Shown: positions 1 to 21,281, counted from the stretch's first letter. The stretch: DNA of 21,281 bases from Candidatus Thorarchaeota archaeon (GCA_048882505.1 JBHLRO010000031.1:12568-33848); one strand, 5' to 3'. Numbers and translations are program-made. The notes: generated by a model not told the origin, from the sequence alone.

Positions 1-857
1 CCAAAGTATCTATTAGTAGATCCTGCTAGAGCAAAACCCCCATCGGTCGTTTGAACCAAGGCATAGGCAATATCCTCATGACCAGCATACCCATATTGGG
101 GGATCGTTTGCTTCCAGGTCACATTGCCGGAAGCATCCGTTTTCACTAACCACATGTCCTCATTCCCAAATGACCACGTCCACCCTGCCAGAGCAAACCC
201 ACCATCAACAGTCTCAATTACTGATTTTGCCCCATCAGATTCTGTTTTTCCATAAGTGTGATTCCACTCTTCCTTACCATTGTCATCCGTTTTCACTAAC
301 CACATATCCCAATTCCCTGCACCATCCAACTCCGTCGATCCCGCCAGAACAAACTCCCCATCTGTTGTCCGAACCAAGCCAGAGGGTACATCAAGATTGG
401 GTCCCCCATAAGACTGATTCCAAGTCATCATTCCATGGGCGTCCACCTTTACCAACCAAAAATCCGAGCCCCCAATCCCATAAACGTTAGTAATTCCTGC
501 GAGTGCAAACCCGCCATCTGTTGTCTGAATCAAGGCAGAGGGTACATCAAGGTAGGGCCCCCCATAAGACTGATTCCAAGTCATCACTCCATTAGCATCG
601 GTCTTCAGCAACAACATGTCCCCACCTTCGTAATCGGAGGGTGCACAAAAACCACACCACGCGGCATGTGATTTCGTACCCCCCGCCAAAGCAAAACCCC
701 CATCAGTAGTTTGGACCATAGCTGTTACCTCAAACGATTCAGGTGGATCCCACTCTGGTTGTGAGTCAGGGTCGTTCGTGCGTGATCGAACAGTTATACT
801 CACCAATACCAATGAAACTATCAATACAAGTAAAATTACTCCCGTCTTTCCTTGCAT
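1..857 (-). CDS. Secreted/membrane-anchored beta-propeller repeat protein (partial, runs off left edge)
   Basis: Not in the ORF track. Manual translation from ATG at 857 is open to the window edge: MQGKTGVILLVLIVSLVLVSITVRS (hydrophobic signal/anchor), then five ~50-aa repeats QTTDGGFALAG...D(M/F)WLVKTD.NG...WNQSYGG. Confidence 0.88.
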   Translation of the reverse strand, partial: MQGKTGVILLVLIVSLVLVSITVRSRTNDPDSQPEWDPPESFEVTAMVQTTDGGFALAGGTKSHAAWCGFCAPSDYEGGDMLLLKTDANGVMTWNQSYGGPYLDVPSALIQTTDGGFALAGITNVYGIGGSDFWLVKVDAHGMMTWNQSYGGPNLDVPSGLVRTTDGEFVLAGSTELDGAGNWDMWLVKTDDNGKEEWNHTYGKTESDGAKSVIETVDGGFALAGWTWSFGNEDMWLVKTDASGNVTWKQTIPQYGYAGHEDIAYALVQTTDGGFALAGSTNRYF

Positions 858-1699: not shown

Positions 1700-1727
1700 T
1701 TTTAACCTACCCACCGTTATACGACAT
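1700..1727. other. 28-bp dif/Xer-like site 1
   Basis: TTTTAACCTAC-CCACCG-TTATACGACAT. Minus strand ATGTCGTATAA-CGGTGG-GTAGGTTAAAA versus E. coli dif GGTGCGCATAA-TGTATA-TTATGTTAAAT: 6/11 and 8/11 arm identity. Confidence 0.6.
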
Positions 1728-1891
1728 CAGATAATTTGAAGTTATATAAGAAGAAGATGAATCTGGGAAAAACTCCCTCCTAACACAAGAGCTCGCAGAA
1801 TTTTAGATCTTTTCATAATACCTTTTCATTTTCTATTCAGACAGCCTAGGAAGAACTCCTGAGCTTTCTCATGTGAGATCTTAGAGACTAA

Positions 1892-3229
1892 TTAAATCCG
1901 TGAAGTTTCTCCTTCCCCTTCATCAGGCTTTTTTTCCCTAAAATACAGACTAAGATAGATACATGTAGCCCCAATGAAACTTAGAAACAGTGGAACGATA
2001 ATTCCTTCATTTAGTCCATATTGTTCGATTAAACTTCCAGCAATTGGAAGAGTGGGGATTCCAATAATCGAAGTAAGGGTAGGAATCAATGAGTAAACTG
2101 AATTTCGAAAATCAGATGGAACTAAGTCCACCATGGTTCTTCCTCTCAATGTTTCTGCAATATCATAGATACAATTAACACCAATGGTCAATAGAAGGGC
2201 CGTTAAGATCGCTCCAGGAAAATTTGGCTCATTAGCAGGAGGAATGATAGCTAATAAAATAACAAAGGGAAGATAATATGTGAAAGTAATTAGAAAGTCA
2301 AATAGAGGCAACTTACTGTTCGGAAATTTCTGACTTACTTTTGCCATGTAGATTCCAATTGGAATTCCAACAAAGAACATAATTGTCCTGAATAAGGATG
2401 CTAATCCATCAGTCCCTGTATAGCCGAAATATATAGGGAAGAGAATCAACGAACCCCAAACATTTAGAGCTGCATAAATTATGGACATTCCCATCAAAAA
2501 GAAGAAAGCAGACTTACTAGATACTAGAAATTTGAGTCCTCCGACGAGGAATGTAAAGAAGTTCTCTGATGACGGTTCTGTATATAGAGTATCCTCCTTA
2601 AACTCTATAGCATCAGACTTAATATCCTGGACGAGAAAAATTATGAAGAATATTAGAAACGCTGATAATATTGCTTGAATGAAAAAAACTAGCTCCCGTG
2701 AGAATGAAGTTGCGATAAATCCACCAATTGTGAAGGTAAAGGCCATGGTGATTCTAACTAAACTACCAATACGTGCATTAAAAAAACCATAGATCTTTCG
2801 ATCAGGATCTTGGTCTCCAACTACGCTCTTATAGTTATTGTCAAGCCAAGTACCTAAAGTTCCTGATGCCTGCGCATTGGCCACTCCTGTAAAAAAGGCA
2901 TAGACGAAAAAGTCGGTAAATGTTGTTGAAAAAGATAACAACCAATATGAGATGGCATAACATGAAAAAGCAATTGACAAAACCCACCGTTGACCAATAT
3001 AATCACCGAGAGATCCACTAGGGTAATCAATAAGCAGCTGAATGAGAAGCGTAAAAGAAATAATTATACTTGCTTGTGTTGGTCCGATTTTATCGTAAGT
3101 GTAAAGAACAAAAAATGTACTCGATAAATTTCCTATTATTGATATAATTAAAATTACAACAAGAAATTTCATTATTAAATTACGTGCATTAGGAATCGCT
3201 TCTATCCCTAAAAACCGTGGAAGAAACAA
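1892..3229 (-). CDS. MFS transporter
   Basis: About 12 hydrophobic segments and MFS motif A-like PSGSLGDYIGQR. The ORF track starts at TTG 3289; TTG 3229 follows an AGGTGA SD-like motif and is preferred. Confidence 0.88.
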   Translation of the reverse strand: MFLPRFLGIEAIPNARNLIMKFLVVILIISIIGNLSSTFFVLYTYDKIGPTQASIIISFTLLIQLLIDYPSGSLGDYIGQRWVLSIAFSCYAISYWLLSFSTTFTDFFVYAFFTGVANAQASGTLGTWLDNNYKSVVGDQDPDRKIYGFFNARIGSLVRITMAFTFTIGGFIATSFSRELVFFIQAILSAFLIFFIIFLVQDIKSDAIEFKEDTLYTEPSSENFFTFLVGGLKFLVSSKSAFFFLMGMSIIYAALNVWGSLILFPIYFGYTGTDGLASLFRTIMFFVGIPIGIYMAKVSQKFPNSKLPLFDFLITFTYYLPFVILLAIIPPANEPNFPGAILTALLLTIGVNCIYDIAETLRGRTMVDLVPSDFRNSVYSLIPTLTSIIGIPTLPIAGSLIEQYGLNEGIIVPLFLSFIGATCIYLSLYFREKKPDEGEGETSRI

Positions 3230-3431
3230 ATCATCACCTTTACATAAACAGTCACGCCCGAAAAGGACGAGAGCTTTAAAATATTTCAAAAAAGGCAGTC
3301 ATTCACGCTTTTGCAGGAGAAGACTATGAGTTAGCTGTTGTCCCTCCTAAAACAAGAGCCTCCTTCTCTCGGTTTGACGCACGCTCTCAGCATTATGTGT
3401 TCATAATCCTGAGTATCATTATACGTATTTT

Positions 3432-3459
3432 TGGCAATATATCCAACGTTAAGCGACAT
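3432..3459. other. 28-bp dif/Xer-like site 2
   Basis: TGGCAATATAT-CCAACG-TTAAGCGACAT: same spacer as sites 4, 6 and 7, and the right arm matches the family. Confidence 0.55.
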
Positions 3460-3584
3460 CTCCTTCATGGAGAAAAAACAACTGACTAATGATGGATGAT
3501 GGATAAATGTATTAAAATGATGAAATAGCTAATGGAACAATAGTCTATTGCTCAGTGGTTGAGACAAATAGGAACGTATCGAAC

Positions 3585-4607
3585 ATGAAGGTCTTGGGAT
3601 ACGCAGCAAAAGCGATAGGACAGCCACTGGAACCCTTCACCTACGAGCAACCAAAAACAGATGCACATGATATCCTGGTGTCGGTGACGCACTGCGGTTT
3701 GTGTTATACTGACATCCACGCTATCGACGACTACTACGGAATAACCACCTTTCCCTTTGTCCCTGGTCATGAGATTGTTGGATATGTGTCGGCTGTGGGC
3801 CGTGCAGTATCTAACCTCAAAGAAGGGGATCGGGTCGGCATTGGCTGGCAGGGGCGTTCTTGTATGAAATGTGAGTGGTGCTTGCAGGGCGAAGAGCAGC
3901 TCTGTATGGACATCGTGTCGTCAGGAACATGGGTTCCCTATGGCGGATTCTCGTCCTCTATCTGTGTGGATAGCCGCTTTGCCTACCCGATTCCAGACGC
4001 CATGCCCTCCGAAGTGGCTGCAGTACTCATGTGCGCCGGGATCACGGTTTACTCCCCGCTCCGTTCTTACTCAGCTCATCAAGGGAAGAAAATTGGCATT
4101 ATCGGCGTGGGAGGGCTGGGTCACCTCGCATTACAGTTCGCACGCGCCCTCAATTACGAAGTAACCGCTATTTCCTCCTCTCCAGACAAGAAGGATCAAG
4201 CGCTAGCATTTGGCGCGGACCACTTCCTTGTTTCAGACGACCAGACCAGCATGCAACGAGCTGGGTTCGTCTTCGACCTGCTCTTATGCACCGCTCACGG
4301 CAAGATAAACTGGGAGGTCCTATTGAGTACTCTGAAGAAAAATGGGAGGCTGATCCTTACCGGCTTCCCAGACATGACATTCAATCCGACTGACCTCGTG
4401 GCACATCAATTATCGGTCACCGGGTCCTTCCTTGGCAATCGGGTAACCATGCGAGAGATGCTTTCGTTTGCACAGGAACACACCATCGTTCCCAAGGTAG
4501 AGCTAATGCCCATGACGAAGGTAAACGAAGCTATTCGAAAAGTTAAGGAGAACAAGGCACGCTACCGAATTGTTCTATATAACGACATCGGGGAAGTGGA
4601 ACTCTAA
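3585..4607 (+). CDS. Zn-dependent NAD(P) alcohol dehydrogenase (cinnamyl-alcohol dehydrogenase/YahK-Ahr-like)
   Basis: CGLCYTD and GHE catalytic-Zn motifs, CMKCEWC...C structural-Zn motif, GVGGLGH Rossmann motif, ARYRIVL C-terminus. ATG 3585 preferred over GTG 3555. Confidence 0.93.
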   Translation: MKVLGYAAKAIGQPLEPFTYEQPKTDAHDILVSVTHCGLCYTDIHAIDDYYGITTFPFVPGHEIVGYVSAVGRAVSNLKEGDRVGIGWQGRSCMKCEWCLQGEEQLCMDIVSSGTWVPYGGFSSSICVDSRFAYPIPDAMPSEVAAVLMCAGITVYSPLRSYSAHQGKKIGIIGVGGLGHLALQFARALNYEVTAISSSPDKKDQALAFGADHFLVSDDQTSMQRAGFVFDLLLCTAHGKINWEVLLSTLKKNGRLILTGFPDMTFNPTDLVAHQLSVTGSFLGNRVTMREMLSFAQEHTIVPKVELMPMTKVNEAIRKVKENKARYRIVLYNDIGEVEL

Positions 4608-4704
4608 ATTCTTAGAGTTCTTTGAAGACACTTTAGTCCTAAGCTATCTTTATCCAAGATATCAGATCTTAAGATCATCTCCAACCTATTTTTATTTTAT
4701 CGAA

Positions 4705-5651: not shown

Positions 5652-6209
5652 ATGAAAAAGCTAATCATGTGGAATTTAATTACCCTCGATGGATATTTCC
5701 AAGGTAAGGAAGATTGGGACTTAAGTTTTCATGACCTAGTTTGGGGAAAAGAGTTAGAAGAGTTTTCAATTGAGCAGCTGAAATCCGCTGATATGATAAT
5801 ATTTGGCCTCACTACCTACCAAGGGATGGCAGCTCATTGGCAAGATGCCGAGGGAGAGGTGGCAGACTTCATGAATAAACTCCCAAAAGCCGTATGTTCG
5901 AGTACGCTAAAAACTGCTCGCTGGAATAACACAATTATCATAAAAAATGCAGCCGATGAAATCTCCAAATTGAAACAAGAAGGAAATGGAGACTTATTTG
6001 TATTTGGCAGTGGTAAACTTTGCGAAAGCCTGATGAAAGAAGACTTATTTGATGAATATAGACTTGTTATTACGCCAGTTTTTCTTGGGGAAGGAAGGCG
6101 GCTTTTTAACGAGGGATCAAAGTATCAAGAACTTAGACTCATTGAATCCAGACCGCTTTCTAATGGCGGTGTTATGTTGAGGTACGCCAATACGTTCGAA
6201 GGTAAATGA
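5652..6209 (+). CDS. Dihydrofolate reductase-like / RibD C-terminal domain protein
   Basis: MKKLIMWNLITLDGYF...IFGLTTY...GSGKL...LFDEYRLVITPVFLGEGRRLF. Confidence 0.92.
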   Translation: MKKLIMWNLITLDGYFQGKEDWDLSFHDLVWGKELEEFSIEQLKSADMIIFGLTTYQGMAAHWQDAEGEVADFMNKLPKAVCSSTLKTARWNNTIIIKNAADEISKLKQEGNGDLFVFGSGKLCESLMKEDLFDEYRLVITPVFLGEGRRLFNEGSKYQELRLIESRPLSNGGVMLRYANTFEGK

Positions 6210-9309: not shown

Positions 9310-9484
9310 TGTGAGATGATGCTGACCAATGAATAATGGGTCCTATTCATCATAGAGAACATGATTATAAATTGATTGAGAGATTTAATTTTTCAAAATC
9401 GAAGTTTCGAGACCAAGAAAGTTAAACATTGAACTTCATCGAGCGGATTCGTGACTGCTCTGTTTACGCGCAGCTCTTGGAATC

Positions 9485-9670
9485 GAAACCCTAATGAAAG
9501 AAGGCTTAGTCGATGAATATAGGCTTGTTATTACACCAGTTTTTCTTGGGAAAGGAAGGCGGCTTTTTAGCGAAGGATTGAAGTATCAAGAACTTGGGCT
9601 TCTTGAATCCCAGCCACTTTCTACTGGTGGCATCCTATTAAGGTACGCAAACACGTCTGTTGGCAAATAA
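9485..9670 (+). pseudogene. 3' fragment of a second DHFR-like gene (62 codons, no 5' part)
   Basis: ETLMKEGLVDEYRLVITPVFLGKGRRLFSEGLKYQELGLLESQPLSTGGILLRYANTSVGK* is colinear and gap-free with 6024-6209. Confidence 0.88.
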
Positions 9671-9727
9671 ACGAAAACTCTTCCCTAAGGAGCTCTGATG
9701 TTATTAATCGCTATGCGATCACACATG

Positions 9728-9773
9728 AGCAAAAAAAAGAAACAAAGTTCCTTCCCCGCCCAAAAAGAGAAAA
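9728..9773 (-). repeat. Partial repeat copy (trailer only)
   Basis: AAAAAGAAACAAAGTTCCTTCCCCGCCCAAAAAGAGAAAA matches 17939-17981 and 21112-21153. Confidence 0.8.
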
Positions 9774-10281
9774 TCAACGATATAGCAATAAGCTTCGGAT
9801 TCCCCGCCTGCTCAGATAATGCCAAGCTTTGCAGAAAATAGTCCAATGCCCTGTCTAGCGCACCTTTTCGCCAATAGATTAATCCCTTCACATTACAGAA
9901 TAGTGCCACCCTGTCTTTTCCGTTCTCCTTTTCAACCGCTGTGAACGCTTCTATCAGCTGTTCTCCTTCCCTGCTTGCTGCTAGTCCCTCATCCAGTCGT
10001 CCCAGCCGCGTTAGAGCATATAGTTCCGCTACCAGTAGAGAAAAAGTGGGTAGTTTTCCCACGGTGGTAGATAATTCTGTTCGGGCCTTTCTTGCCACCG
10101 TTAAGGCTTTATCGAATTGTCCTAAGGCTTCGAAAGCCCGACTCTTGTAATACTGATGTTCGATCTGCCTTTTCAAAGGTATATTATCTGGTTTAGCTTT
10201 TCCGGCCAGCTGTTCCAGTACTTCCTGGTACTTTCCTTTCTCAAAGAGCTCTTTCAAGTCTCTCTGTTTCATTGCTCTCAC
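9774..10281 (-). pseudogene. TPR-repeat protein, 3'-truncated and fused to the repeat trailer
   Basis: TPR helices (ALFCNVKGLIYWRKGALDRALDYFLQSLAL...IAISL). The frame breaks at about 9774 and continues into repeat sequence (IFSFWAGKELCFFF) to a stop at 9685. Confidence 0.82.
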
Positions 10282-12560: not shown

Positions 12561-12689
12561 CAAGTAGCATATTTTCTGTAAAATCAATTACAGAATGGAT
12601 CTGTTTATGTCTATCTGGAATTATCTCCGTCCAATACAAGCTCGTAGTTCTACCTAATTAAGCAGATTGTAAGAATAGAAAAAAATGAA

Positions 12690-12845
12690 GATAAAAAACT
12701 TCTTCCCACCAAAAAAAAATTCGGAGTCTGGGCGTTACTTCGTGTACAGCTGTTCCACTTCAAGTTGTGACTTACCATGGATCGCCGCAATCCCCAAGAT
12801 GCTTCCCAAAGGTACCTTGAACAGATTCATGGCTCAATTACCTTA
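12690..12845 (-). repeat. Repeat copy A (gene 3' end plus trailer)
   Basis: Minus strand 12830-12735 encodes MNLFKVPLGSILGIAAIHGKSQLEVEQLYTK*, followed by the trailer. Confidence 0.88.
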
Positions 12846-12873
12846 GTCCCAACTCATTCCCGTTATGTTGGGA
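12846..12873. other. 28-bp dif-like, partly palindromic site 5
   Basis: GTCCCAACTCA-TTCCCG-TTATGTTGGGA, with TCCCAAC/GTTGGGA inverted arms and the family CG|TTA junction; sits at the end of copy A. Confidence 0.45.
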
Positions 12874-12970
12874 TACAAATATACTTTTATACTTGTAGAA
12901 TTCTGAATATAAACAAGGGAAAAAGCTCAAAATTACAACATTTACGCTAATGCTAGTTACGGTGAGATAA

Positions 12971-13234
12971 TTGACAACAGTGCGATTAAATAAAGATGAT
13001 GAGGATCTTTTAGAAAGGTTAAGAGCTCGTTATATTTTGATGGGCAAAAAAATGACAAAAAAGGAAATTTTAGGACAATTAATCAGACAAGAAGCAAAGA
13101 AATTTGAAGAAGAACTCAATAATCAGCATTTGCCCAAACTAGAGGAGGATATTGCCTGGAAATTACTCCAAACACCAACAAAATGGGGGATTAAAGATAC
13201 TTCTACAACTGTGGATGAATATCTCTATCAGTGA
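12971..13234 (+). CDS. Putative antitoxin (VapB-like)
   Basis: 87 aa, TTG start after GGTGA; MTTVRL N-terminus and acidic DTSTTVDEYLY C-terminus; directly upstream of a PIN gene. Confidence 0.78.
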   Translation: MTTVRLNKDDEDLLERLRARYILMGKKMTKKEILGQLIRQEAKKFEEELNNQHLPKLEEDIAWKLLQTPTKWGIKDTSTTVDEYLYQ

Positions 13235-13243
13235 GGTAATTCC

Positions 13244-13654
13244 ATGGTTGTGCTTTTAGATACTGGGTTTATTCTTGCTATACGAAATTCTGATGATGTT
13301 AATCATAATAAAGCAACCGAATTAATGAGAGAATGTTTATCAGAAAAATATGGCCGGATTATTGTTTCAAATTTCGTATTTGATGAGACCGTTACCTTAA
13401 CACTAGTGAGAACCCGTAATAAGAGCTTAGTTAGAGATATTGGCGACTTTATTTTTGATTCGCCGAGGATTACTTTACTGCATTTGAGCGAAACAGAATT
13501 TCTAGTTACTTGGGAATTCTTCCTTAAATACTTCGAAAAGGGGCTCTCATTTACGGACTGCTCGCTTCTAGTCATGGCGAAGCTCTTCGAGAGTAATGTT
13601 TACATTGCCACCTTTGATCGACATTTCAAGGGACTCCTTCCCGTACTTGGATAA
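13244..13654 (+). CDS. vapC: PIN-domain toxin (VapC family)
   Basis: VLLDTGFILA...FDETVTL...LSFTDCS...TFDRHF are the PIN acidic motifs. Confidence 0.93.
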   Translation: MVVLLDTGFILAIRNSDDVNHNKATELMRECLSEKYGRIIVSNFVFDETVTLTLVRTRNKSLVRDIGDFIFDSPRITLLHLSETEFLVTWEFFLKYFEKGLSFTDCSLLVMAKLFESNVYIATFDRHFKGLLPVLG

Positions 13655-13668
13655 TTCCTGTATAAGAG

Positions 13669-13696
13669 ACGTGCAATAACCAACGTTATACGACAC
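13669..13696. other. 28-bp dif/Xer-like site 6
   Basis: ACGTGCAATAA-CCAACG-TTATACGACAC has the canonical ATAA-N6-TTAT core; 15 bp after the vapC stop and about 42 bp before the trailer of copy B. Confidence 0.65.
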
Positions 13697-13721
13697 CTCA
13701 GTGTCATATCAGTAGAGAATA

Positions 13722-13838
13722 GGGAATAAGGAAAAAACTCCTTCCCCCCGCGAAAAAAAGGCTGGAGTCTGGGTGTTACTTCGTGTTCAGCTGTTCGACT
13801 TCAAGCTGTGACAAGACTAGAGTGCCGCAATCCTAAGA
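13722..13838 (-). repeat. Repeat copy B
   Basis: Minus strand reads IAAL, then a 1-nt deletion, then VLSQLEVEQLNTK* (stop 13776-13778), followed by the trailer GGGGGGAAGGAGTTTTTTCC. Confidence 0.88.
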
Positions 13839-13911
13839 GAACGACTCCTTTTTCGCTCCCCAAATGGCTATTACTTCCAGCAAATAACGTTTACTCTTGG
13901 TAAAAGCTCTC

Positions 13912-14379
13912 TTACCAATGAGAATGCTCAGGGGGTCTTAATTCTGGGAAGTTTGTGTCTCTAGCACGTATAAAGGAACGAAAATAAGAGGGTCTAACCC
14001 GAATCACGGCCCATGTCTTCCTTCTAGCCAAGAATTGCTCTTCTTCAAGCCAATAGTATTTCTTGATTCTCATTGCCTTTACTTTTTCTATAATTTCTTC
14101 GTCCTCAACATTTTCAGCTTCTCCTCTTATCATCACATATTGGTTCTTCCAATCATCCTTATAGACATGATGAACCAAGAGAGCCACATCTGGCTTCCTT
14201 TGAATGTTTCGGATCGTCAAGATGTTGGGTCTCGTCAAAATGTAGATTACACCCTCTTCTTCATGATACATGAAGTAAAATCCAGCAATATAGGGTTTAC
14301 CATTTACCCCAACAGTAGATATGATCAATGCGTCCTCGTCATGTAGAAATTTCTTGCTTGGTTCGTCTATTTCCACCAT
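13912..14379 (-). CDS. Pyridoxamine 5'-phosphate oxidase-like (split-barrel flavin/F420-binding) protein
   Basis: ISTVGVNGKP...IYILT...RNIQRKPDVALLV...VMIRGEAE...VIRVRP. Confidence 0.85.
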   Translation of the reverse strand: MVEIDEPSKKFLHDEDALIISTVGVNGKPYIAGFYFMYHEEEGVIYILTRPNILTIRNIQRKPDVALLVHHVYKDDWKNQYVMIRGEAENVEDEEIIEKVKAMRIKKYYWLEEEQFLARRKTWAVIRVRPSYFRSFIRARDTNFPELRPPEHSHW

Positions 14380-14646
14380 TGTAGTTATTTCCTTCTTTGT
14401 TTTCTTTCTTATATTTTTGCAACCATCGATAGTTAAAAGTTTTCCAATTTCATTTATGGATTCTTTTAGTAAATCTATTCTAGCAAAAACCCAGGATGGA
14501 GTAGATCTAGGATGAGTTTAAATTGATCTTCGTCCCCTTAATGAGGAGTTACAGTTAAAAACAACATATTGGTTAAGACTTTAGAAATGCGATATGTCAA
14601 TATTTAGCACCACATTACAATTGATCTTCACCCCCACCGCCCATTA

Positions 14647-14674
14647 TTTTGTCCTATATCTGGTTAGAGAGCTG
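14647..14674. other. Degenerate dif-like site before copy C
   Basis: TTTTGTCCTAT-ATCTGG-TTAGAGAGCTG: left arm 8/11 identical to site 1, at the expected ~45-bp spacing from the trailer. Confidence 0.3.
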
Positions 14675-14699
14675 TTGGAGTTTGCAAAGAGAAAAAGAT

Positions 14700-14808
14700 A
14701 TTGAAAAAAGAGGAAAAACCTCTCTTCCGTTTTAAACAAAATATTGAGTCTAGATGTCATTTTGTATAGCGCTGTTTGACTTCGGGCTGCGACAAGATAC
14801 AGAGTACT
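14700..14808 (-). repeat. Repeat copy C (diverged)
   Basis: Minus strand 14804-14757 encodes LCILSQPEVKQRYTK*, followed by a diverged trailer. Confidence 0.8.
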
Positions 14809-14916
14809 GATTGTAAAACTGATTTGATCAACTCTGTCTCGATATACATCCAAAACCAAGGAAGAAGGCCTGGAAAAATCCTTGGCAGCGATCTTTAATA
14901 ATATCAATTGGAAAAA

Positions 14917-15098
14917 TTACCTGGATGAACGAACCATTTTACGCGCTTCTATCAGGTGATCTTCCGCTCTTGCTTTTTGTAACCTTTTTTGTACCGTTGC
15001 GTTCTGCATCAATAACTCCTCTCATTTCACGAGTTCTTCTTCCAGTTGTTTCCTTTCTCAAAGAGCTCTTTCAAGTCTCTCTCTTTCATTGCTCTCAC
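14917..15098 (-). pseudogene. Internally deleted remnant of the TPR gene family
   Basis: 15049-15098 is 49/50 identical to 10232-10281 (MRAMKERDLKELFEKG). It is joined out of frame to 44 codons QLEEELVK*EELLMQNATVQKRLQKARAEDHLIEARKMVRSSR*. Confidence 0.75.
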
Positions 15099-15288
15099 CT
15101 ATAGAAAAATTGGCAAAAAAGGGATATTTTAACCTCTAAAACAAAAACAAATATATATTGTAGATATTATATCATTTTCTAATCTGTTCATTAATTTAAA
15201 TTGGAAAGGTTCTGATTACATTTAGAAATGCATAAAATAAACCCGATTGGGCATAATCTAAAAATCCAAAGTCCTAGGGGTCAATTTC

Positions 15289-15960
15289 ATGTTTAAAAAT
15301 ACTCGAATCCCGTACTTTTATCGTTTATCTTTATTGTTAGCTTCACTTACCACCTTTACTGTTCTTGAAATACTTGTTTTTATCGAATTTCAGAATGAAG
15401 TTACGGATCTTATTCAAAGATATCGTACTTGGTCGTATCAATCAAATTTACTTGTTTTAATTTGGCTTGCACTCGCTATTTACTATAATACGAATGAAAA
15501 TAAAAAGGATATTTTATTTGGACCATTAAAAGGTGCTATAACTTCATATATTACCGTTACGATTGTATTCTGGCATTTTGTTATTTCTCCGACCGCAGCT
15601 CCCGCAGAAGGAATTGTAATACTAGCAAATCTTATGATTCATTATTTCCTGCCAATTGCTTTTATTGTTGATTTTCTTCTATTTGATGTTCCCTCCTATG
15701 AATGGAAATCTATTCCGTCTTGGTTTATTTTTCCTTTAGTATGGACTGGTTTTGTCATGTTGACAGGTCTTACGGGATTTTTTAGAAACTCTTTGGGATT
15801 ACCGAATTATGTTTATCCATTCCTTAGTATTAATCGACATGGGGTAATCTCAGTAGGAACTTTCCTATTAATCGTATATATCGGTCTTTTATTAATGGCA
15901 GTAGCTTATGTTGGAATTTCTAAGATAAAAAATCGTTCCAAAATTCTGCAAGCAAATTAA
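15289..15960 (+). CDS. Pr6Pr / FAR-17a-AIG1-like membrane protein
   Basis: About 6 TM helices; SYQSN, HYFLP...DF and YVYPFL motifs. Confidence 0.72.
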   Translation: MFKNTRIPYFYRLSLLLASLTTFTVLEILVFIEFQNEVTDLIQRYRTWSYQSNLLVLIWLALAIYYNTNENKKDILFGPLKGAITSYITVTIVFWHFVISPTAAPAEGIVILANLMIHYFLPIAFIVDFLLFDVPSYEWKSIPSWFIFPLVWTGFVMLTGLTGFFRNSLGLPNYVYPFLSINRHGVISVGTFLLIVYIGLLLMAVAYVGISKIKNRSKILQAN

Positions 15961-16319
15961 ATATGCAAAGACCATAGAATCAAAAGATTGTAGAGATTAA
16001 TAAAGGAGAAATAACGAGAAATAGTCCGAAAATATTCCTTTTCTTTCCAATCCAAGTCTAACCAATGGAAAGTCTGGAAATTATCCCCGTTTAATCCCTT
16101 TCTATATTAAAATATCCCGTTTTCGTAAAAAAGGAAATTCAATTTAAGATCGCTCTAATTGGGGAAAATCGGAAAAAAATGTCATTTCTTCAAAGAAGGC
16201 ACCTGATGGCTTGTAAAGCTGAGTCAGTCAAGGCAAAAATACTCTCTCCTACCCCCGTCAGGATTTGCATTGCGATTAATCAGGGATATTTCACACCGTA
16301 CTTACGGTTGTACTACATT

Positions 16320-16347
16320 TAACGTAATATCCAACGTTAACCGACTT
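16320..16347. other. 28-bp dif/Xer-like site 7
   Basis: TAACGTAATAT-CCAACG-TTAACCGACTT. Confidence 0.55.
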
Positions 16348-16402
16348 CGATGCGGTACTCACTCTACCATAAGAAGGAAAAAAGGAAACAAAGCTCCTTC
16401 AC
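16348..16402 (-). repeat. Partial repeat copy (site-proximal trailer)
   Basis: CGATGCGGTACTCACTCTACCATAAGAAGGAAAAAAGGAAACAAAGCTCCTTC is near-identical to 21081-21133. Confidence 0.9.
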
Positions 16403-16649
16403 CTTTTAAGAAAGCCAGAATTTAAAAAAGACGTCATTAAACATCCAACACTGGGAGGTGTTAAGGACACTTTCAGTGGAGGCAAGGTATCACAGATCTC
16501 TTATGAATGAACACCCCACGATCGTTCTATCTTCTTCCTTCCAAATATTAGCCTCTTAATACCTGGATCGCCACTGGTCATTAGTGGTTTCACAGGTAGA
16601 CCAAAGTGAAAACAAAAAAAACCTTTGGAATTTTCAAAAGAGAGAGACG

Positions 16650-17585
16650 TCATAAATTTTTATACCAGTCAAGGGTTTGATGAATCGCTTCCCGGTGAGG
16701 TGTGACAGTTTTACCAAACGCTTTTTCAAATTTAGAGTGATCAAGAATAAAAGGATCTTGAAATTGGTAAAGCGTTTCCTTCAACTCTCGAAGCGTGGGA
16801 TCAACTATTCCTAGTAAGGAAACGATTATATTTGGTGTAACGCTTATTTTGGGTTCAGCATTTGCTTCTTCAAACATCAATTCCAGAAATTGCCTTGTAG
16901 TCAGTGTTTCAGCACTCGGAATATGCCATACCTGTCCAAACGCTTCATTATGGTCTGCTAACGTTATGAGGCCTTTGGCAAAGTCTTCAATAAACATGTA
17001 TGTATGAGGAACGTCAAGATTACCCAAAACACTCACCTTCTGGCCTCTTAAGATGTTTGGAACCACGCGTTCTCCGATAGCGGCAAACAATACTCTGGGC
17101 CCGAAAAAATCAGAGGAACGACCAATAGTCGCCTCGATTTTACCATTGTTATGAGCCTCGATTAACATATCAGCAATCTGAGCTCGAGCTTTTCCTTTTC
17201 TCCCATGCGGATTATAAGGAAGATTTTCGGCGATAGGACCTTGGACACGGCCATAACAGTACAGATTATCACCAAAAACCAACCTAGCTCCAGTATTTAT
17301 TGCGAGATTAATCATACTTTCCATAATTAGAGGGTGCTTCTCTGGCCATTTAGTATAAGGGGGACTAACACAGTGATAGATCACTGTCGCCCCAGTAACA
17401 GCATTTTTTGAAGACTGAGGGTCAAATATGTCTGCTTTAGCCATCTCAACCTCTTCAGTACCCCTTATCTTCCCACTACGATTGACACCACGAACATTTC
17501 TGTCTTGTTTCCTTAGTTCACGAATAATCGCGGATCCAAGTGCTCCACTAGCACCAAATACCACATGAAGTTCATCTTTACTCAT
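16650..17585 (-). CDS. NAD-dependent epimerase/dehydratase (atypical SDR)
   Basis: VVFGASGALG Rossmann motif, DNLYCYG, KGKARA, GRSSDFFGP. Confidence 0.92.
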   Translation of the reverse strand: MSKDELHVVFGASGALGSAIIRELRKQDRNVRGVNRSGKIRGTEEVEMAKADIFDPQSSKNAVTGATVIYHCVSPPYTKWPEKHPLIMESMINLAINTGARLVFGDNLYCYGRVQGPIAENLPYNPHGRKGKARAQIADMLIEAHNNGKIEATIGRSSDFFGPRVLFAAIGERVVPNILRGQKVSVLGNLDVPHTYMFIEDFAKGLITLADHNEAFGQVWHIPSAETLTTRQFLELMFEEANAEPKISVTPNIIVSLLGIVDPTLRELKETLYQFQDPFILDHSKFEKAFGKTVTPHREAIHQTLDWYKNL

Positions 17586-17876
17586 AAAAGTCCTCCATTC
17601 GTAATCTGGAATCTTCCCGTTGATAGAGAGGATAAAACGATGATAAACTACTTTTTCAGGGATCCTTCCTACAGATGCATCAAAAATCCCTTCAAAGGCT
17701 GATCTAAAACGAAACTGCGATTGAAAGAACCTGATAGTAGCATACGGACTTTTACTAGAATTTGATGCTCTATTAATACTTTTCCATTGTGAGATTCTTC
17801 GCTATGATTGTTCGCCATCAAGAGGGGTAATTATTTATCTTCCGTGATTTTTCGCTGGCGACTTAAGTTCATTTGG

Positions 17877-17904
17877 CTATTAAAACAATTCCATTATACA
17901 ATTT
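17877..17904. other. Degenerate dif-like site before copy D
   Basis: CTATTAAAACA-ATTCCA-TTATACAATTT: left arm 8/11 to site 9, right arm 7/11 to site 1, about 48 bp from the trailer. Confidence 0.3.
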
Positions 17905-17929
17905 CATACTATTTTGTCCTAAATCAGAA

Positions 17930-18098
17930 AGAATGAGAAAAAGGAAACAAAGCTCCTTCCCCGCCTCAAACAGAGACAAGATGCTGGAGGGTACTTCCGC
18001 GTTAGAGCTGTTCCACTTCAGGCTGTGACAAGATGTAGAGCGCCGCGATCCCCAAGATGGTTTCAAAGAGTACGTTAAACAGATTCAGGGCCCCAAAC
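17930..18098 (-). repeat. Repeat copy D
   Basis: Minus strand 18097-18002 encodes FGALNLFNVLFETILGIAALYILSQPEVEQL*. It begins immediately after the vapC stop codon at 18099. Confidence 0.92.
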
Positions 18099-18521
18099 TT
18101 ATTTCATGATTCGATTGAAACTAAAATTGTCGAAATGCTTATCAAAACTATAAATTTCCTTGACTTTTAAGCGATCCATCAAGATTTTCGCCAATGAATC
18201 ATTAATCCCAACTTTGTACCTTTGGGCCAGCACTGCCGCCCCTTGATAGTCGCTATGGGTCACATCAAGAACTCTAATCGTTTCCTTTGCTAGTAAATCA
18301 TAGATGAATTGGGCCGCTTCGGAAAAACTCTTCCGAGTTTCCAGAACACTCGCCACTTCTGACAAATGAACAACACTCGTCACTACTTCTTCTCCCTTAT
18401 CCACTCGGGTAATAATTTCCCTCGCTTCCGATTTCATTTTCCGAAGATGCTCGGGAAGCTCTTGGATGGGCTCCAGAACTGCGTATAAGAACGTCGAAGC
18501 ATCAATAAACCGCAAATTCAC
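18099..18521 (-). CDS. vapC: PIN-domain toxin (VapC family)
   Basis: FIDASTFLYA...HLSEV...GINDSLA...IYSFDKHFD; 4-nt overlap with the antitoxin gene. Confidence 0.93.
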   Translation of the reverse strand: MNLRFIDASTFLYAVLEPIQELPEHLRKMKSEAREIITRVDKGEEVVTSVVHLSEVASVLETRKSFSEAAQFIYDLLAKETIRVLDVTHSDYQGAAVLAQRYKVGINDSLAKILMDRLKVKEIYSFDKHFDNFSFNRIMK

Positions 18522-18757
18522 ACCTTCCCTCCACTTAGCAAGTACTCCTTTAACCTATGGTAATCCGAGTAGATATCGGGAGGTATCTCTACCTTAAGAA
18601 ATTCAAAATACTTTTGTAAATTGGGATCGTCTTTTGGAATAACCAACAACAGATCTCCATCTTCAACCAGAAAAACCTCGTTCGATTGAACCTTTTTCCG
18701 CCATTCTGGAGGTAATACCACTCGTCCTTGGGAATCGATCCTTTTCAACTCAATCAT
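18518..18757 (-). CDS. AbrB/MazE/SpoVT-type antitoxin (VapB)
   Basis: KRIDSQGRVVLPPEWRKK...VEDGDLLLVIP is the swapped-hairpin signature. Confidence 0.9.
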   Translation of the reverse strand: MIELKRIDSQGRVVLPPEWRKKVQSNEVFLVEDGDLLLVIPKDDPNLQKYFEFLKVEIPPDIYSDYHRLKEYLLSGGKV

Positions 18758-18762
18758 TATAA

Positions 18763-18846
18763 TCCCATATTTTGCTGGTTTTTCCCACTTTTAAAGATCC
18801 CTCCCCAGAAATGATTCATGCCTCCCATTACTTTCGAAAACTCCCA
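18763..18846. promoter_or_regulatory. Phased TCCCA/TGGGA array, putative antitoxin operator
   Basis: TCCCA or TCCCCA at 18763, 18783, 18802, 18823 and 18842 (19-21 bp period), directly upstream of the antitoxin ATG. Confidence 0.6.
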
Positions 18847-19114
18847 ATTTCACCCCAAATCCGAATAATAAGGAGTAAAAAAAGAGTCTATCTATTCCTA
18901 GTAGTCCTTTTCGCTTCTAGTTATCTTCTTACCGGAGCAATTAAAAGCGAGTCAGCTTAACGGTGTACTAGTAGCGTAGCCAATATTAAAAGGATTCAGT
19001 TCATAAGGTGAGTCGATATATCGATAGGGACAAATTCTTCCTCTCTTTCCTCTTTCATGTTTCGGAATAATAAGAGAGGAGAGAGTATTCATTTGGCAGC
19101 ACCTATACTAGAGT

Positions 19115-19546
19115 TCAGAAAGTAAAAACATAATAACGTACTACCCCCTCCCATCCTCCATGTATCTCTCTAATAACATTTGAAATAGTAGGTGATAAAA
19201 TACGATTGCAATGGTTTCTCCATGCTTTTGGTATTCCTTTTATTGACCCTGGATGATACAAGTCTTTATCGAGAGTAAAAACAGATCGTTTCAGTCCTAA
19301 CCTATGAACTAATTGTATTTCCTCATCCAAAAACTTGCTGCTTGACGGATCTGTTCCAACAAATAGAATAGAAACTTTACATTGCTCCATCAAACTTTTT
19401 AGGGTTGGTAATCCTGTGGTTTCGGAAGTTGTTTCATCATAATAAACCACTTTATATATTCCATTTTTATGTCGGTTAATATAGTCAATTAGATGGGAAA
19501 TTCGGTCTTGAGCGACATTCTTTCTTATCAGATATATTTTCCTCAT
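19115..19546 (-). CDS. Putative TIR-like domain protein (MTH538/DUF1863, ThsB-like)
   Basis: MRKIYLI...CKVSILFVGTDPSSSKFLDEEIQLV...SVFTL follows the remembered pattern (S)VTIVLIG..T..SKWV..EI of MTH538-type TIRs. ATG 19546 preferred over TTG 19564. Confidence 0.5.
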   Translation of the reverse strand: MRKIYLIRKNVAQDRISHLIDYINRHKNGIYKVVYYDETTSETTGLPTLKSLMEQCKVSILFVGTDPSSSKFLDEEIQLVHRLGLKRSVFTLDKDLYHPGSIKGIPKAWRNHCNRILSPTISNVIREIHGGWEGVVRYYVFTF

Positions 19547-19885
19547 TGTTACTCCATTTTCCAAGTTTTAAATAACACCAAAGGTGTATGATTACAAGGT
19601 TTCGGTTTTAGATAGGCTCCCACATTAATAAAACTATTGAACACAGAACGATCATTATATTTTACATGAGTATCAAGAGTTTGCAAATGTAAGCTAATCA
19701 GCTAGAAAATCTCTCTTCCAGTTTTTTCTTAGTAAATCCGCACTTCACGTATGTTATTTATGAACTTTGGATTCTACTGACAACGAAAGTCAACATTGCG
19801 TAACAACTGGAAATAACCAAGGATCCGCTTTGTTTGAACCAAAATTTCAATTTTATATCGTCCAATCTTAAGTACTCAATATGGA

Positions 19886-19913
19886 TATTTCGATGACCAT
19901 GGTTAGCCGAATT
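19886..19913. other. Degenerate dif-like site before copy E
   Basis: TATTTCGATGA-CCATGG-TTAGCCGAATT: right arm 9/11 identical to site 7. Confidence 0.4.
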
Positions 19914-19924
19914 TAGCAAAGAAA

Positions 19925-20053
19925 GCGAAGAAGAAAAAGGAAAACACTCCTTCCCCCTCAAAAAAAGGTTAAGTCTGGGTATTACTTCGTGTAAAGTTGC
20001 TCGACTTCAGGTTGTGACAAGACGTAGAGCGCTGCAATCCCCAAGATGGTTCC
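19925..20053 (-). repeat. Repeat copy E
   Basis: Minus strand 20053-19982 encodes an intact GTILGIAALYVLSQPEVEQLYTK*, followed by the trailer. Confidence 0.92.
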
Positions 20054-20059
20054 ATAGCT

Positions 20060-20087
20060 AGTGTTGGATCCCTCCGTTAGATGACAC
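20060..20087. other. 28-bp dif-like site 8
   Basis: AGTGTTGGATC-CCTCCG-TTAGATGACAC: right arm 8/11 to site 6; lies 7 bp beyond the end of copy E. Confidence 0.45.
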
Positions 20088-20164
20088 TGCCAAAGCTTAA
20101 ATACTAGAATATTCTATCACCTGGTATTTGCTCATCCTGGGGTGAGTCATTTTGACCTTTTCCT

Positions 20165-20281
20165 CGAGGAAGACAAAGCTCCTAGTTCTTTTATCAATCC
20201 TGGTGATTAGTTCAGCTTTCCTGGGAAATTTTGCCAGTTTATCTAATAGAATAGACTGCAATCCCAACAATGGTTCGTATT
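20165..20281 (-). repeat. Repeat copy G (strongly degenerate)
   Basis: Colinear shards GGAAGACAAAGCTCCT, CTGGTGATTAGTTCAGCTTTCC and CTGCAATCCCAACAATGGTTC in the same order as in copy F. Confidence 0.6.
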
Positions 20282-20285
20282 TAAC

Positions 20286-21059
20286 ATGAGTATTGAATTG
20301 GACCTGTATTACACGTTTTTACTAATAATGGTGATGATTGCAGTAGCGGTTTTCTTTAGTCTATTTTTTATACCAGCTGGGTATGGCCAATTAATCAGTA
20401 AACGATGGGGAACAGTTACCATTAATAACAGGCCGGGTTGGGTAATTATGGAACTCCCTGTTGTACTTTTTATGTCACTATTTTGGCTGGTTTCTGAGCG
20501 AACCCTTGAACCAACTCCCTTCGTCCTTTTCATTTTGTTTAATATTCACTATTGTCAAAGGACGTTTATTTTTCCATTATTGATACGAGGAGAAAATCAA
20601 ATGCCTTGGTCCATTATCATTCTTGGAATGGTCTTCAATTCTGCAAACGCCTTTATGCAGGGAATTTGGATCTTCTTCTTATCGCCTCCTACTCTTTATA
20701 ATCCACAATGGCTCTCAACGCCTCAATTTATAATTGGTACAACAATGTTTATGATTGGTTTCTTTATCAATATTCATTCAGATCATACTATCAGAAATTT
20801 ACGTGAACCTGGAGATACTGCCTTCCACATTCCAAATGGGGGTCTATTTAAGTATGTTACATCTGCAAACTACTTTGGGGAGTTCACGGAATGGGTTGGG
20901 TGGATGATTTTGACCTTGTCTTGGCCAGGGTTTGTATTTGCATTATGGACATTCGCAAATCTAGGCCCAAGGGCCCACAGCCTGAGAAATTGGTATAGGA
21001 AAACGTTTGGTGAGGAATTTCCGATGAATAGAAAACGCATGATTCCATTCATCTATTAA
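20286..21059 (+). CDS. 3-oxo-5-alpha-steroid 4-dehydrogenase (steroid 5-alpha-reductase/DET2/SRD5A) family protein
   Basis: GWVIMELP, HYCQRTFIFP, NIHSDHTIRNLR.PG...IPNGGLFKYV..ANYFGE..EW, NLGPRA, RKRMIPFIY. Confidence 0.92.
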   Translation: MSIELDLYYTFLLIMVMIAVAVFFSLFFIPAGYGQLISKRWGTVTINNRPGWVIMELPVVLFMSLFWLVSERTLEPTPFVLFILFNIHYCQRTFIFPLLIRGENQMPWSIIILGMVFNSANAFMQGIWIFFLSPPTLYNPQWLSTPQFIIGTTMFMIGFFINIHSDHTIRNLREPGDTAFHIPNGGLFKYVTSANYFGEFTEWVGWMILTLSWPGFVFALWTFANLGPRAHSLRNWYRKTFGEEFPMNRKRMIPFIY

Positions 21060-21080
21060 ATATTCAACGTTAAACGACTT
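21053..21080. other. 28-bp dif/Xer-like site 9
   Basis: CTATTAAATAT-TCAACG-TTAAACGACTT; the left arm contains the TAA stop of the reductase gene. Confidence 0.55.
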
Positions 21081-21164
21081 CGATGTGGTACTCACTCTAC
21101 CATGAAAAGGAAAAAAGGAAACAAAGCTCCTTCCCCGTCTTAAAAAGAGAAAAGATGCTGGAGG
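21081..21164 (-). repeat. Trailer of copy F (3' UTR with pyrimidine-rich, terminator-like tract)
   Basis: Minus strand ...GGGGAAGGAGCTTTGTTTCCTTTTTTCCTTTTC..., shared with all repeat copies. Confidence 0.85.
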
Positions 21165-21281
21165 TTATTTCTGGGTATAGAGCTGTTCCACTTCGGGCTG
21201 TGATAAGACGTAAAGCGCCGCAATCCCAAACATGGTTCCAAAGGGTAGATTGATCAAATTCAGGGCTCCAATCACCATGGT
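21165..21281 (-). CDS. 3' end of a membrane-protein gene (partial, runs off right edge); candidate parent of the repeat family
   Basis: Open to the window edge: TMVIGALNLINLPFGTMFGIAALYVLSQPEVEQLYTQK* (39 codons). Hydrophobic helix with an (N)xPxGT motif followed by an amphipathic PEVEQLY tail. Confidence 0.72.
   Translation of the reverse strand, partial: TMVIGALNLINLPFGTMFGIAALYVLSQPEVEQLYTQK

Follow-up and report, generated by a model that had tools for sequence, protein, structure and literature searches.

Why does the end of one protein-coding gene recur, in pieces of different length, along an archaeal contig? The question is raised by a stretch of 21,281 nt, called the window below, which corresponds to bases 12568-33848 of contig C31 in genome G000 (Candidatus Thorarchaeota archaeon, GCA_048882505.1). 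The window begins directly after a 100-N scaffold gap and its right edge is the contig end. Its host is placed in the Asgard order Hodarchaeales, Heimdall group, and the assembly amounts to 4.3 Mb (94.5% complete). Genome G016, of the same genus, served as the main comparison, its own array lying on locus L030; G009 is a closed related genome. An initial annotation had proposed that each of the repeated scraps in the window was the former working 3′ end of a diverged allele of a single gene. Our results uphold this claim, with intact parent genes and a strong bias toward silent differences. The best explanation as a whole, in which we place good confidence, is that the scraps are relic 3′ ends and trailers of one chromosomal gene, stacked by serial integration.

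Copies of the gene end and their intact relatives

A stop-to-stop reading of every frame recovered six copies of the same C-terminus (A to F), every one on the minus strand and each where the initial annotation had placed it. Two deep alleles of the gene end and its trailer alternate along the array:

Type 2: ...YTQK and stop, then CCTCCAGCATC...; carried by F, D, the G016 gene and three G016 fragments.
Type 1: ...YTK and stop, then CCCAGACT...; carried by E, B, A, C and two G016 fragments.

The copies and the pieces attached to them are as follows:

9718-9773, minus: hairpin and partial trailer without coding part, joined to a TPR gene whose 3′ end is truncated.
12735-12833, minus: copy A, 32 codons and stop, type 1, the most decayed; the unit with trailer and hairpin spans 12681-12833.
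~13776-13847, minus: copy B, ~18-20 codons, type 1, frameshifted; the unit spans 13672-13847.
14757-~14800, minus: copy C, ~13-17 codons, type 1-like; the unit with trailer and hairpin spans 14704-14800.
16323-16403, minus: outer half of unit D, with conserved site (16328-16348), spacer and hairpin copy.
18002-18103, minus: copy D, ~33 codons, type 2; trailer and hairpin at 17938-18001.
19982-~20065, minus: copy E, 23-27 codons, type 1, ending in ...LYTK and stop; trailer and hairpin at 19927-19981.
21056-21087, minus: conserved site near F, with the 21-nt block RATGTCGTWTAACGTTGGWTA at 21061-21081 (35.5 bits in a position-weight scan).
21112-21164, minus: trailer of F, with purine box, hairpin and a T-run on the gene sense strand; it looks terminator-like.
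21165-21281, minus: copy F, the last 38 codons and stop, the longest copy, type 2, ending in ...LYTQK and stop; open at the contig end.

The coding end is thus variable, as first described, from ~13-17 codons in C to 38 in F. Copies A, B, C and D have decayed since becoming scraps; damaging replacements are found in A and C, a 1-nt deletion shifts the frame of B, and another 1-nt deletion brings an early stop after ...EVEQL in D, which is 92% identical to G016 L030 3182-3285.

What copies A-F encode is the C-terminal part of a membrane protein with a zinc ribbon, some 190 residues long and apparently specific to Hodarchaeales. The intact parent gene presupposed by the initial proposal exists. 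In G016 it has 193 codons (L030 9566-10144), with 95% identity to F over the last 38 residues (DNA 92% identical over 170 nt), and six fragments of 12-27 codons lie behind it. Intact genes of the same type are also present in genomes G002 and G007, and a search of 5.8 billion proteins retrieved ~26 relatives, among them ~16 further full-length ones from metagenomes. All relatives with a source label come from a Hodarchaeales-type or another Asgard group, and across them the C-terminal helix with its ...LSQPEVEQLYT(K/R/Q) tail is the best-conserved part. G000 itself carries an intact paralogue of 167 residues on contig C1, with an N-terminal zinc ribbon followed by the membrane domain. The neighbour upstream of intact genes is conserved, and G000 contig C71 matches, at 94% identity, a stretch that lies 1.4 kb upstream of the G016 gene. 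This synteny suggests that F heads an orthologous gene whose remainder would fall in an assembly gap; its 5′ part was not found on any other contig of the G000 assembly. Three fragments of this type are present in G009, and a sequence search of this closed genome gave no intact gene of the type.

We then considered how the copies differ. Between E and F, 13 differences are found in 22 codons (GT... to ...YT), all 13 at third positions (binomial p = 6.3e-7 for a single codon position), and 11 of them are synonymous, the other two being M/I and F/L. This recount agrees exactly with the initial one. Pooling E, D, A and C against F gave 13, 9 and 38 differences at the first, second and third codon positions (chi-square p = 4e-6), an uneven distribution with a clear third-position excess; with the intact G016 gene as reference and F added to the pool, the counts were 17, 9 and 31 (p = 0.0015). 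The ratios of non-synonymous to synonymous substitution (dN/dS, by Nei-Gojobori) were 0.04 for E versus F, 0.08 for F versus the intact G016 gene, 0.12 for F versus C, 0.23 for F versus D and 0.40 for F versus A, ranging overall from 0.03 to 0.29 in the better-kept copies and from 0.4 to 0.7 for A. The copy alignments are only 36-102 nt long, so that individual dN/dS values are noisy, although the overall third-position bias is not. A dS of 1.2 is found between neighbouring copies. The repeats are therefore coding in origin and carry a signature of purifying selection.

Some observations on the gene itself can be added. In P0016, a full-length orthologue of 222 residues from a Hodarchaeales metagenome-assembled genome, the frame shifts exactly at ...PFGTIF, where the fragments begin; its out-of-frame tail may belong to a resident gene damaged by recombination at the hot spot. 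Direct repeats of ~160-230 nt (L030 11443-11605 and 15604-15831) enclose 4.2 kb of DNA upstream of the G016 target gene, and G000 contig C71 ends in these G016-type repeats with a 24-nt end overlap. This repeat-flanked segment may be another integrated or excisable element.

Hairpin, 21-nt site and cassettes

Behind intact genes (G007 locus L047; locus L083) the native unit consists of the stop codon, ~25 nt, a purine box/hairpin, a T-rich spacer and the 21-nt site, the purine box pairing with the T-rich run after it to form the hairpin. In unit B the order is likewise coding part, trailer, hairpin, spacer and conserved site (13677-13697). The hairpins of E, D and C were flagged as terminator-like by a simple scan. 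Near F, 30 nt separate the hairpin region from the 21-nt site, which directly adjoins the stop codon of the steroid-reductase gene. The 21-nt block is conserved in at least 8 genomes; its position-weight scan gave 0.2 hits per shuffle, and for the hairpin motif 8 occurrences were counted in the window, where shuffling predicts 2.0. Within the whole assembly, both hairpin motif and 21-nt site are found on contig C31 only.

The trailer end had been described as fixed next to a dif-like site. This holds for B, F and 16323-16403, the only three units with a trailer-adjacent conserved site, and fails for A, C, D and E, which end at the hairpin. Two trailer-only copies had also been reported: the first, at 9718-9773, proved to be a hairpin with only part of the trailer, and the one at 16348 turned out to be the outer half of unit D.

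The flanks of the 21-nt site assort independently between genomes, which identifies the site as a recombination breakpoint. The hairpin behaves as a second breakpoint for the epimerase cassette of the window, for a one-gene cassette between hairpin and site behind an intact gene (locus L084) and for a toxin-antitoxin cassette in G007. On metagenome contig L090, a single gene lies between two direct copies of the 21-nt site. A metagenome scan for the site gave 7 loci, 5 with the expected context; the other 2 of the 7 have a different sequence context, in which none of the accompanying features is seen, and are probably chance matches.

Other candidates for the origin or the target were rejected. 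A viral origin of the site was suggested by 22 exact matches in a viral contig collection, which were taken as chance since they come with neither the gene fragment nor a related integrase. The hairpin as only crossover core was ruled out, the 21-nt site being far better conserved across species and itself a breakpoint. As to a known RNA gene as true target, an Rfam scan at E <= 1 had no hits, and neither tRNA nor tmRNA was detected. Separately, two copies of the conserved site lie ~37 nt apart around the palindrome TACGTAT-N-ATACGTA at some junctions (G009 L044 13379-13445; G007 L043 ~760-800 and 19690-19760; window 3415-3457), and two copies in inverted orientation are found at L084 6366-6415. 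Such paired or inverted copies may be accessory binding sites.

Three cassettes are common to the window and G016, with 90-94% identity and in a different order:

Window 19989-21227, G016 L030 1-1239: steroid-reductase cassette, 94% identical.
Window 13721-14515, G016 L030 1120-1920: pyridoxamine-phosphate oxidase cassette, 90.5% identical.
Window 15089-16018, G016 L030 2024-2953: membrane-protein cassette, 94% identical.

The steroid-reductase cassette is closest to the gene in the window and lies beyond the other two shared cassettes in G016. The epimerase cassette is not in G016, where the site-spacer-hairpin-trailer-fragment unit is uninterrupted (L030 3100-3340); in the window it lies between 25-33-nt direct repeats of the hairpin (16371-16403 and 17929-17962). 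Occupied and empty versions of the same insertion site therefore exist, and the piece at 16348 is the outer half of unit D, split by the epimerase insertion. An alcohol-dehydrogenase cassette (3427-4684) is 91% identical to locus L058 of genome G021; homology ends at 4684, and the flank across the conserved site differs between the two. Cassettes have thus been gained and repositioned between genomes.

The cargo carried in the window is the following:

1703-4684, minus: MFS transporter and zinc alcohol dehydrogenase, two cassettes with sites at 1708-1728 and 3440-3460; no gene fragments.
12834-13671, plus: cargo behind A, with an open reading frame (ORF) of 87 codons at 12971-13234, possibly an antitoxin although it gave no family match, and a PIN toxin at 13244-13654.
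13848-14703, minus: pyridoxamine 5′-phosphate oxidase family cargo, gene 13912-14379 (Pfam PF01243).
14801-16322, plus: membrane-protein cargo, 223-residue membrane protein 15289-15960 and relic of a TPR-gene start at 15049-15098.
16404-17937, minus: epimerase cassette, NAD-dependent epimerase/dehydratase family gene 16650-17585 (Pfam PF01370).
18104-19926, minus: cargo between D and E, with a PIN toxin at 18099-18521, an AbrB/MazE-type antitoxin at 18518-18757 and an unassigned ORF of 149 codons at 19115-19564.
20114-21055, plus: steroid-reductase cargo, 3-oxo-5-alpha-steroid 4-dehydrogenase family gene 20286-21059 (PF02544, E = 3.6e-44).

The 50-nt TPR relic (15049-15098) is 98% identical to the start of the TPR gene at 10232-10281, and the 3′ end of this TPR gene is itself fused to the repeat trailer at ~9773. 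A second relic gene end is seen elsewhere in the window: the last ~60 codons of a RibD_C-family gene occur at 6023-6195 and 9484-9656, 3.5 kb apart and 83% identical, without 5′ part, and bracket an ArsR/permease module. At the left edge, the 77 bases flanking the 100-N gap are identical on both sides (C31 12391-12467 and window 1-77). They represent a scaffolding overlap inside a repeat-rich surface-protein gene (3-1247), whose repeat number is therefore uncertain.

Which enzyme could act at these breakpoints? XerA is the sole tyrosine recombinase of the G000 assembly (255 bits with the archaeal XerA model NF040815, cut-off 220; 145 bits with the integron-integrase model, cut-off 265); no tyrosine recombinase is encoded on contig C31 and no integrase in the window. 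In G007 and G009, a module made of a small upstream ORF and a 290-residue integrase lies ~70 nt and ~3 kb from the 21-nt site, respectively; the small ORF appears ribbon-helix-helix-like from weak Pfam matches, in G007 only. A weaker case of an integrase near the site is found in genome G011, and metagenome contig L086 carries an integrase remnant 1.1 kb from it. With integrases beside the site in relatives, the 21-nt site would most simply be the attachment site of these integrase-bearing elements.

The XerA gene (L031:850-2091; G000 contig C5, ~210.9-212.1 kb) encodes 413 residues, with ~100 residues between the N-terminal SAM-like domain (28-112) and the catalytic domain (218-386); orthologues in several relatives have about 295-307. 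On G011 contig C27 (L042 4138-9944), an integrase with an upstream ORF of 145 codons lies 4 kb downstream of the other paralogue type (...TKPEVEPLF) and adjoins a sequence that resembles the conserved site weakly. Integration may thus also target other genes of the membrane-protein family.

How the array may have been built

The model of serial integration that we favour takes the stretch directly downstream of the membrane-protein gene as an integration hot spot. Incoming DNA, either a small circle with one or few genes or a larger element encoding a tyrosine integrase, would bring its own partial unit, always reaching the hairpin or the 21-nt site but with a variable coding extent, and this unit would recombine with the resident one. 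Each insertion would therefore add one partial unit and push older cassettes away from the gene. Until its capture or displacement, each partial copy would have been part of a working gene, in a close donor or in the own lineage, which would explain why copies differ mainly at silent sites. Cassettes presumably pass through circular intermediates, and the fragments were presumably first picked up by imprecise excision. The recombinase acting here may be XerA, the sole tyrosine recombinase of the assembly; the alternative is homologous recombination.

The copies proved to be mosaics of the two 3′-end alleles. The truncation point of the oxidase cassette is identical in both genomes, and its fragment is of type 1 in the window and of type 2 in G016; inside the coding fragment, identity drops from 93-97% to 57-73%. 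Similarly, the fragment of the steroid-reductase cassette (E versus its G016 counterpart G16_1) is 95% identical over the cargo-side 102 nt and 80% over the last 50 nt, with 7 of 9 differences at third positions. The same cassette thus carries different 3′-end alleles in G000 and G016, so that crossovers must also have occurred inside the coding homology. Judging from these alignments, a single scrap can be part element-borne and part former working end, and the mosaics suggest that both routes, element-borne and displaced, may contribute.

A tree of 57-nt tails, in which 16 of the 23 forks stay open, supports two statements only. First, the copies of G000 and G016 all group in a single clade that excludes those of other genomes (support 99/95), which makes the donors close kin. 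Second, F is sister to the G016 gene, its nearest sequence with 4 differences in 57 nt. Copy E differs from every sampled copy by at least 10 of the 57 nt, and no window copy is nearest to another window copy, except A, which is distant from all.

Several points weigh against the explanation by stacked relic ends. The contig ends inside F, at window base 21281, before a full-length gene is reached; units A, C, D and E stop at the hairpin without a 21-nt site; in the 94.5%-complete assembly no integrase was found besides XerA and no recombinase could be assigned to the cassettes. Also, the clustering of G000 and G016 copies could reflect gene conversion among copies rather than independent origins, and some conversion is possible.

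Two narrower routes can be set against the combined one. In the first, the fragment would always be element-borne: captured once by imprecise excision in a donor, in the way of specialised transduction, it would travel in the attachment region of its cassette, recombination would be confined to the 21-nt site and the hairpin, and the end of the resident gene would never be displaced. Consistent with this, the units share a fixed outer end and vary at the coding end, breakpoints fall exactly at the site, the truncation point moves with the cargo between G000 and G016 (E with G16_1, B with G16_1191), and G009 has fragments where the search gave no intact gene. However, the same cassette carries different 3′-end alleles, and the drop of identity within the coding fragment would need extra recombination. 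As sole route we consider it possible, on the doubtful side.

In the second, the crossover would take place within the coding and trailer sequence common to element and resident gene, either through homologous recombination or through an att site of long identity. The element copy would become the new working end, the old end would be left behind the cassette, and the array would be a chronological record of gene ends. This fits the mosaic copies, whose cargo-side part is cassette-linked while the 3′ part differs mostly silently (as in E versus G16_1), and the alternation of types 1 and 2; the classical case of the e14 and phage 21 elements in icd reportedly works in this way. On the other hand, the breakpoints of cassettes without fragment coincide exactly with the 21-nt site or hairpin, truncation points vary between cassettes and are constant within a cassette, and no crossover was directly observed. 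We thus hold exclusive displacement, too, only tentatively.

A broader view would see in the locus a native integron-like cassette platform of Hodarchaeales without dedicated integrase, seated on the terminator of the membrane-protein gene and worked by XerA or homologous recombination, with integrase-bearing elements as occasional helpers. Single-gene circles would be inserted, excised and swapped between species at the 21-nt site and the adjacent hairpin. We offer this view as a speculation, with rather low confidence.

Concerted evolution is a weaker contender. If the intact gene or paralogues repeatedly donated patches to the scraps by conversion, the result could mimic purifying selection, and the single G000 and G016 clade, the identity of D with G16_3235 over 12 codons and two nearly identical G009 copies are in its favour. 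But the distance of E from every sampled copy, the resident-type gene included, the coexistence of two deep allele types and the frameshifts remaining in B and D are hard to reconcile with it, and conversion would homogenise neighbours instead of leaving a dS of 1.2 between them. We therefore regard it as improbable. Finally, local tandem duplication of the gene end followed by neutral decay, already rejected by the initial annotation, would account for the clustering and common orientation of the copies and for little else, given the third-position bias (p = 4e-6), the unrelated cargo between copies, the cassettes found in other genomes and reordered in G016, the site both empty and occupied, copies that are not mutual nearest relatives and the fragments of G009, where the search gave no intact gene; it can practically be dismissed.

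Very little is known on how genes are acquired and shuffled in the closest archaeal relatives of eukaryotes. The locus offers a concrete, recurrent integration hot spot of Hodarchaeales with a defined target (gene end, hairpin and 21-nt site) and identifiable cassettes that differ between sister genomes. Its relic gene ends are a built-in record of insertions, whose silent-site divergence could be used to order or date events, and it supplies testable substrates for XerA and the element integrases. The array also accounts for the breaks that assemblies of these genomes show at this point.

Comparison with known systems

One close parallel comes from the work of Hill and Campbell on e14 and phage 21, which are said to integrate into the 3′ end of icd in Escherichia coli. 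There, the element is said to carry an alternative gene end, a partial copy flanks the integrated element, and the two ends differ mostly silently, both being working ends; what integrates is reportedly one prophage that encodes its integrase and crosses over at a defined point. Here, in contrast, at least 8 units are stacked, most cassettes have 1-2 genes and no integrase, fragment length varies, and breakpoints are also found downstream of the gene, at the hairpin and the 21-nt site. Compared with a Campbell-type att duplication in general, direct, co-oriented partial copies of a gene end around unrelated inserts are present in the window. An intact target gene heads the array in G016, whereas here the longest copy, F, runs off the contig; an element-encoded integrase is absent from the window and from G000 and present in the larger elements of G007 and G009.

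Partial-tRNA footprints of serial integrations are described in the tycheposon islands of Prochlorococcus (bioRxiv 10.1101/2020.12.28.424599), and tandem integration, integrase loss and module exchange between tandem elements in archaeal elements (PMC8371274). The array resembles both in the repeated integration at one site, newer units pushing older ones outward, in the partial copies of the target gene, in the degenerate elements, in the accessory cargo and in the exchange of modules between tandem units. It differs in its target, the end of a protein gene with its terminator region instead of a tRNA gene, in its much smaller units, its Asgard host and the loss of any integrase from the genome. 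The aloposons of Heimdallarchaeum, with giant genes and tRNA-gene targets, were examined and are unrelated.

Clusters of attC sites without integrase have been reported in archaea (PMC9668308). Like these and like integrons, the locus shows small, mostly single-gene cassettes without recombinase, toxin-antitoxin cargo and reshuffling between genomes. Where each integron cassette ends in an attC site, an imperfect palindrome with R and L boxes, the repeats here are homologous to a gene 3′ end and its trailer. Moreover, the cargo is encoded on both strands, and no attI or promoter platform was identified. An integron proper was ruled out by the integrase test, which found no IntI-type enzyme and XerA as sole tyrosine recombinase.

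Integrative mobile elements exploiting Xer (IMEX) integrate at dif via the Xer recombinases of the host (review PMC5357621). With these the locus shares the lack of a cassette integrase, a Xer homologue as only tyrosine recombinase, and co-oriented units stacked around a short site found at this locus only; it departs from them by the dedicated element integrases beside the site in relatives. A dif-type site is of 28 bp, with two 11-bp inverted arms around a 6-bp spacer (PMC2958812, PMC8371274). The conserved block here is of 21 nt without clear 11-6-11 dyad, only AACGTT being palindromic, and its arm complementarity reaches 8/9 in some relatives (genome G017) and ~5/11 in the window copies. 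The dif-like label is not established for the 21-nt site; for the cassettes without integrase, a dif reading is conceivable.

Footprints of serial integration are thus already known elsewhere. What sets the present locus apart is the combination of a protein-gene end with its terminator as target, two breakpoints, small integrase-less cassettes and an Asgard host.

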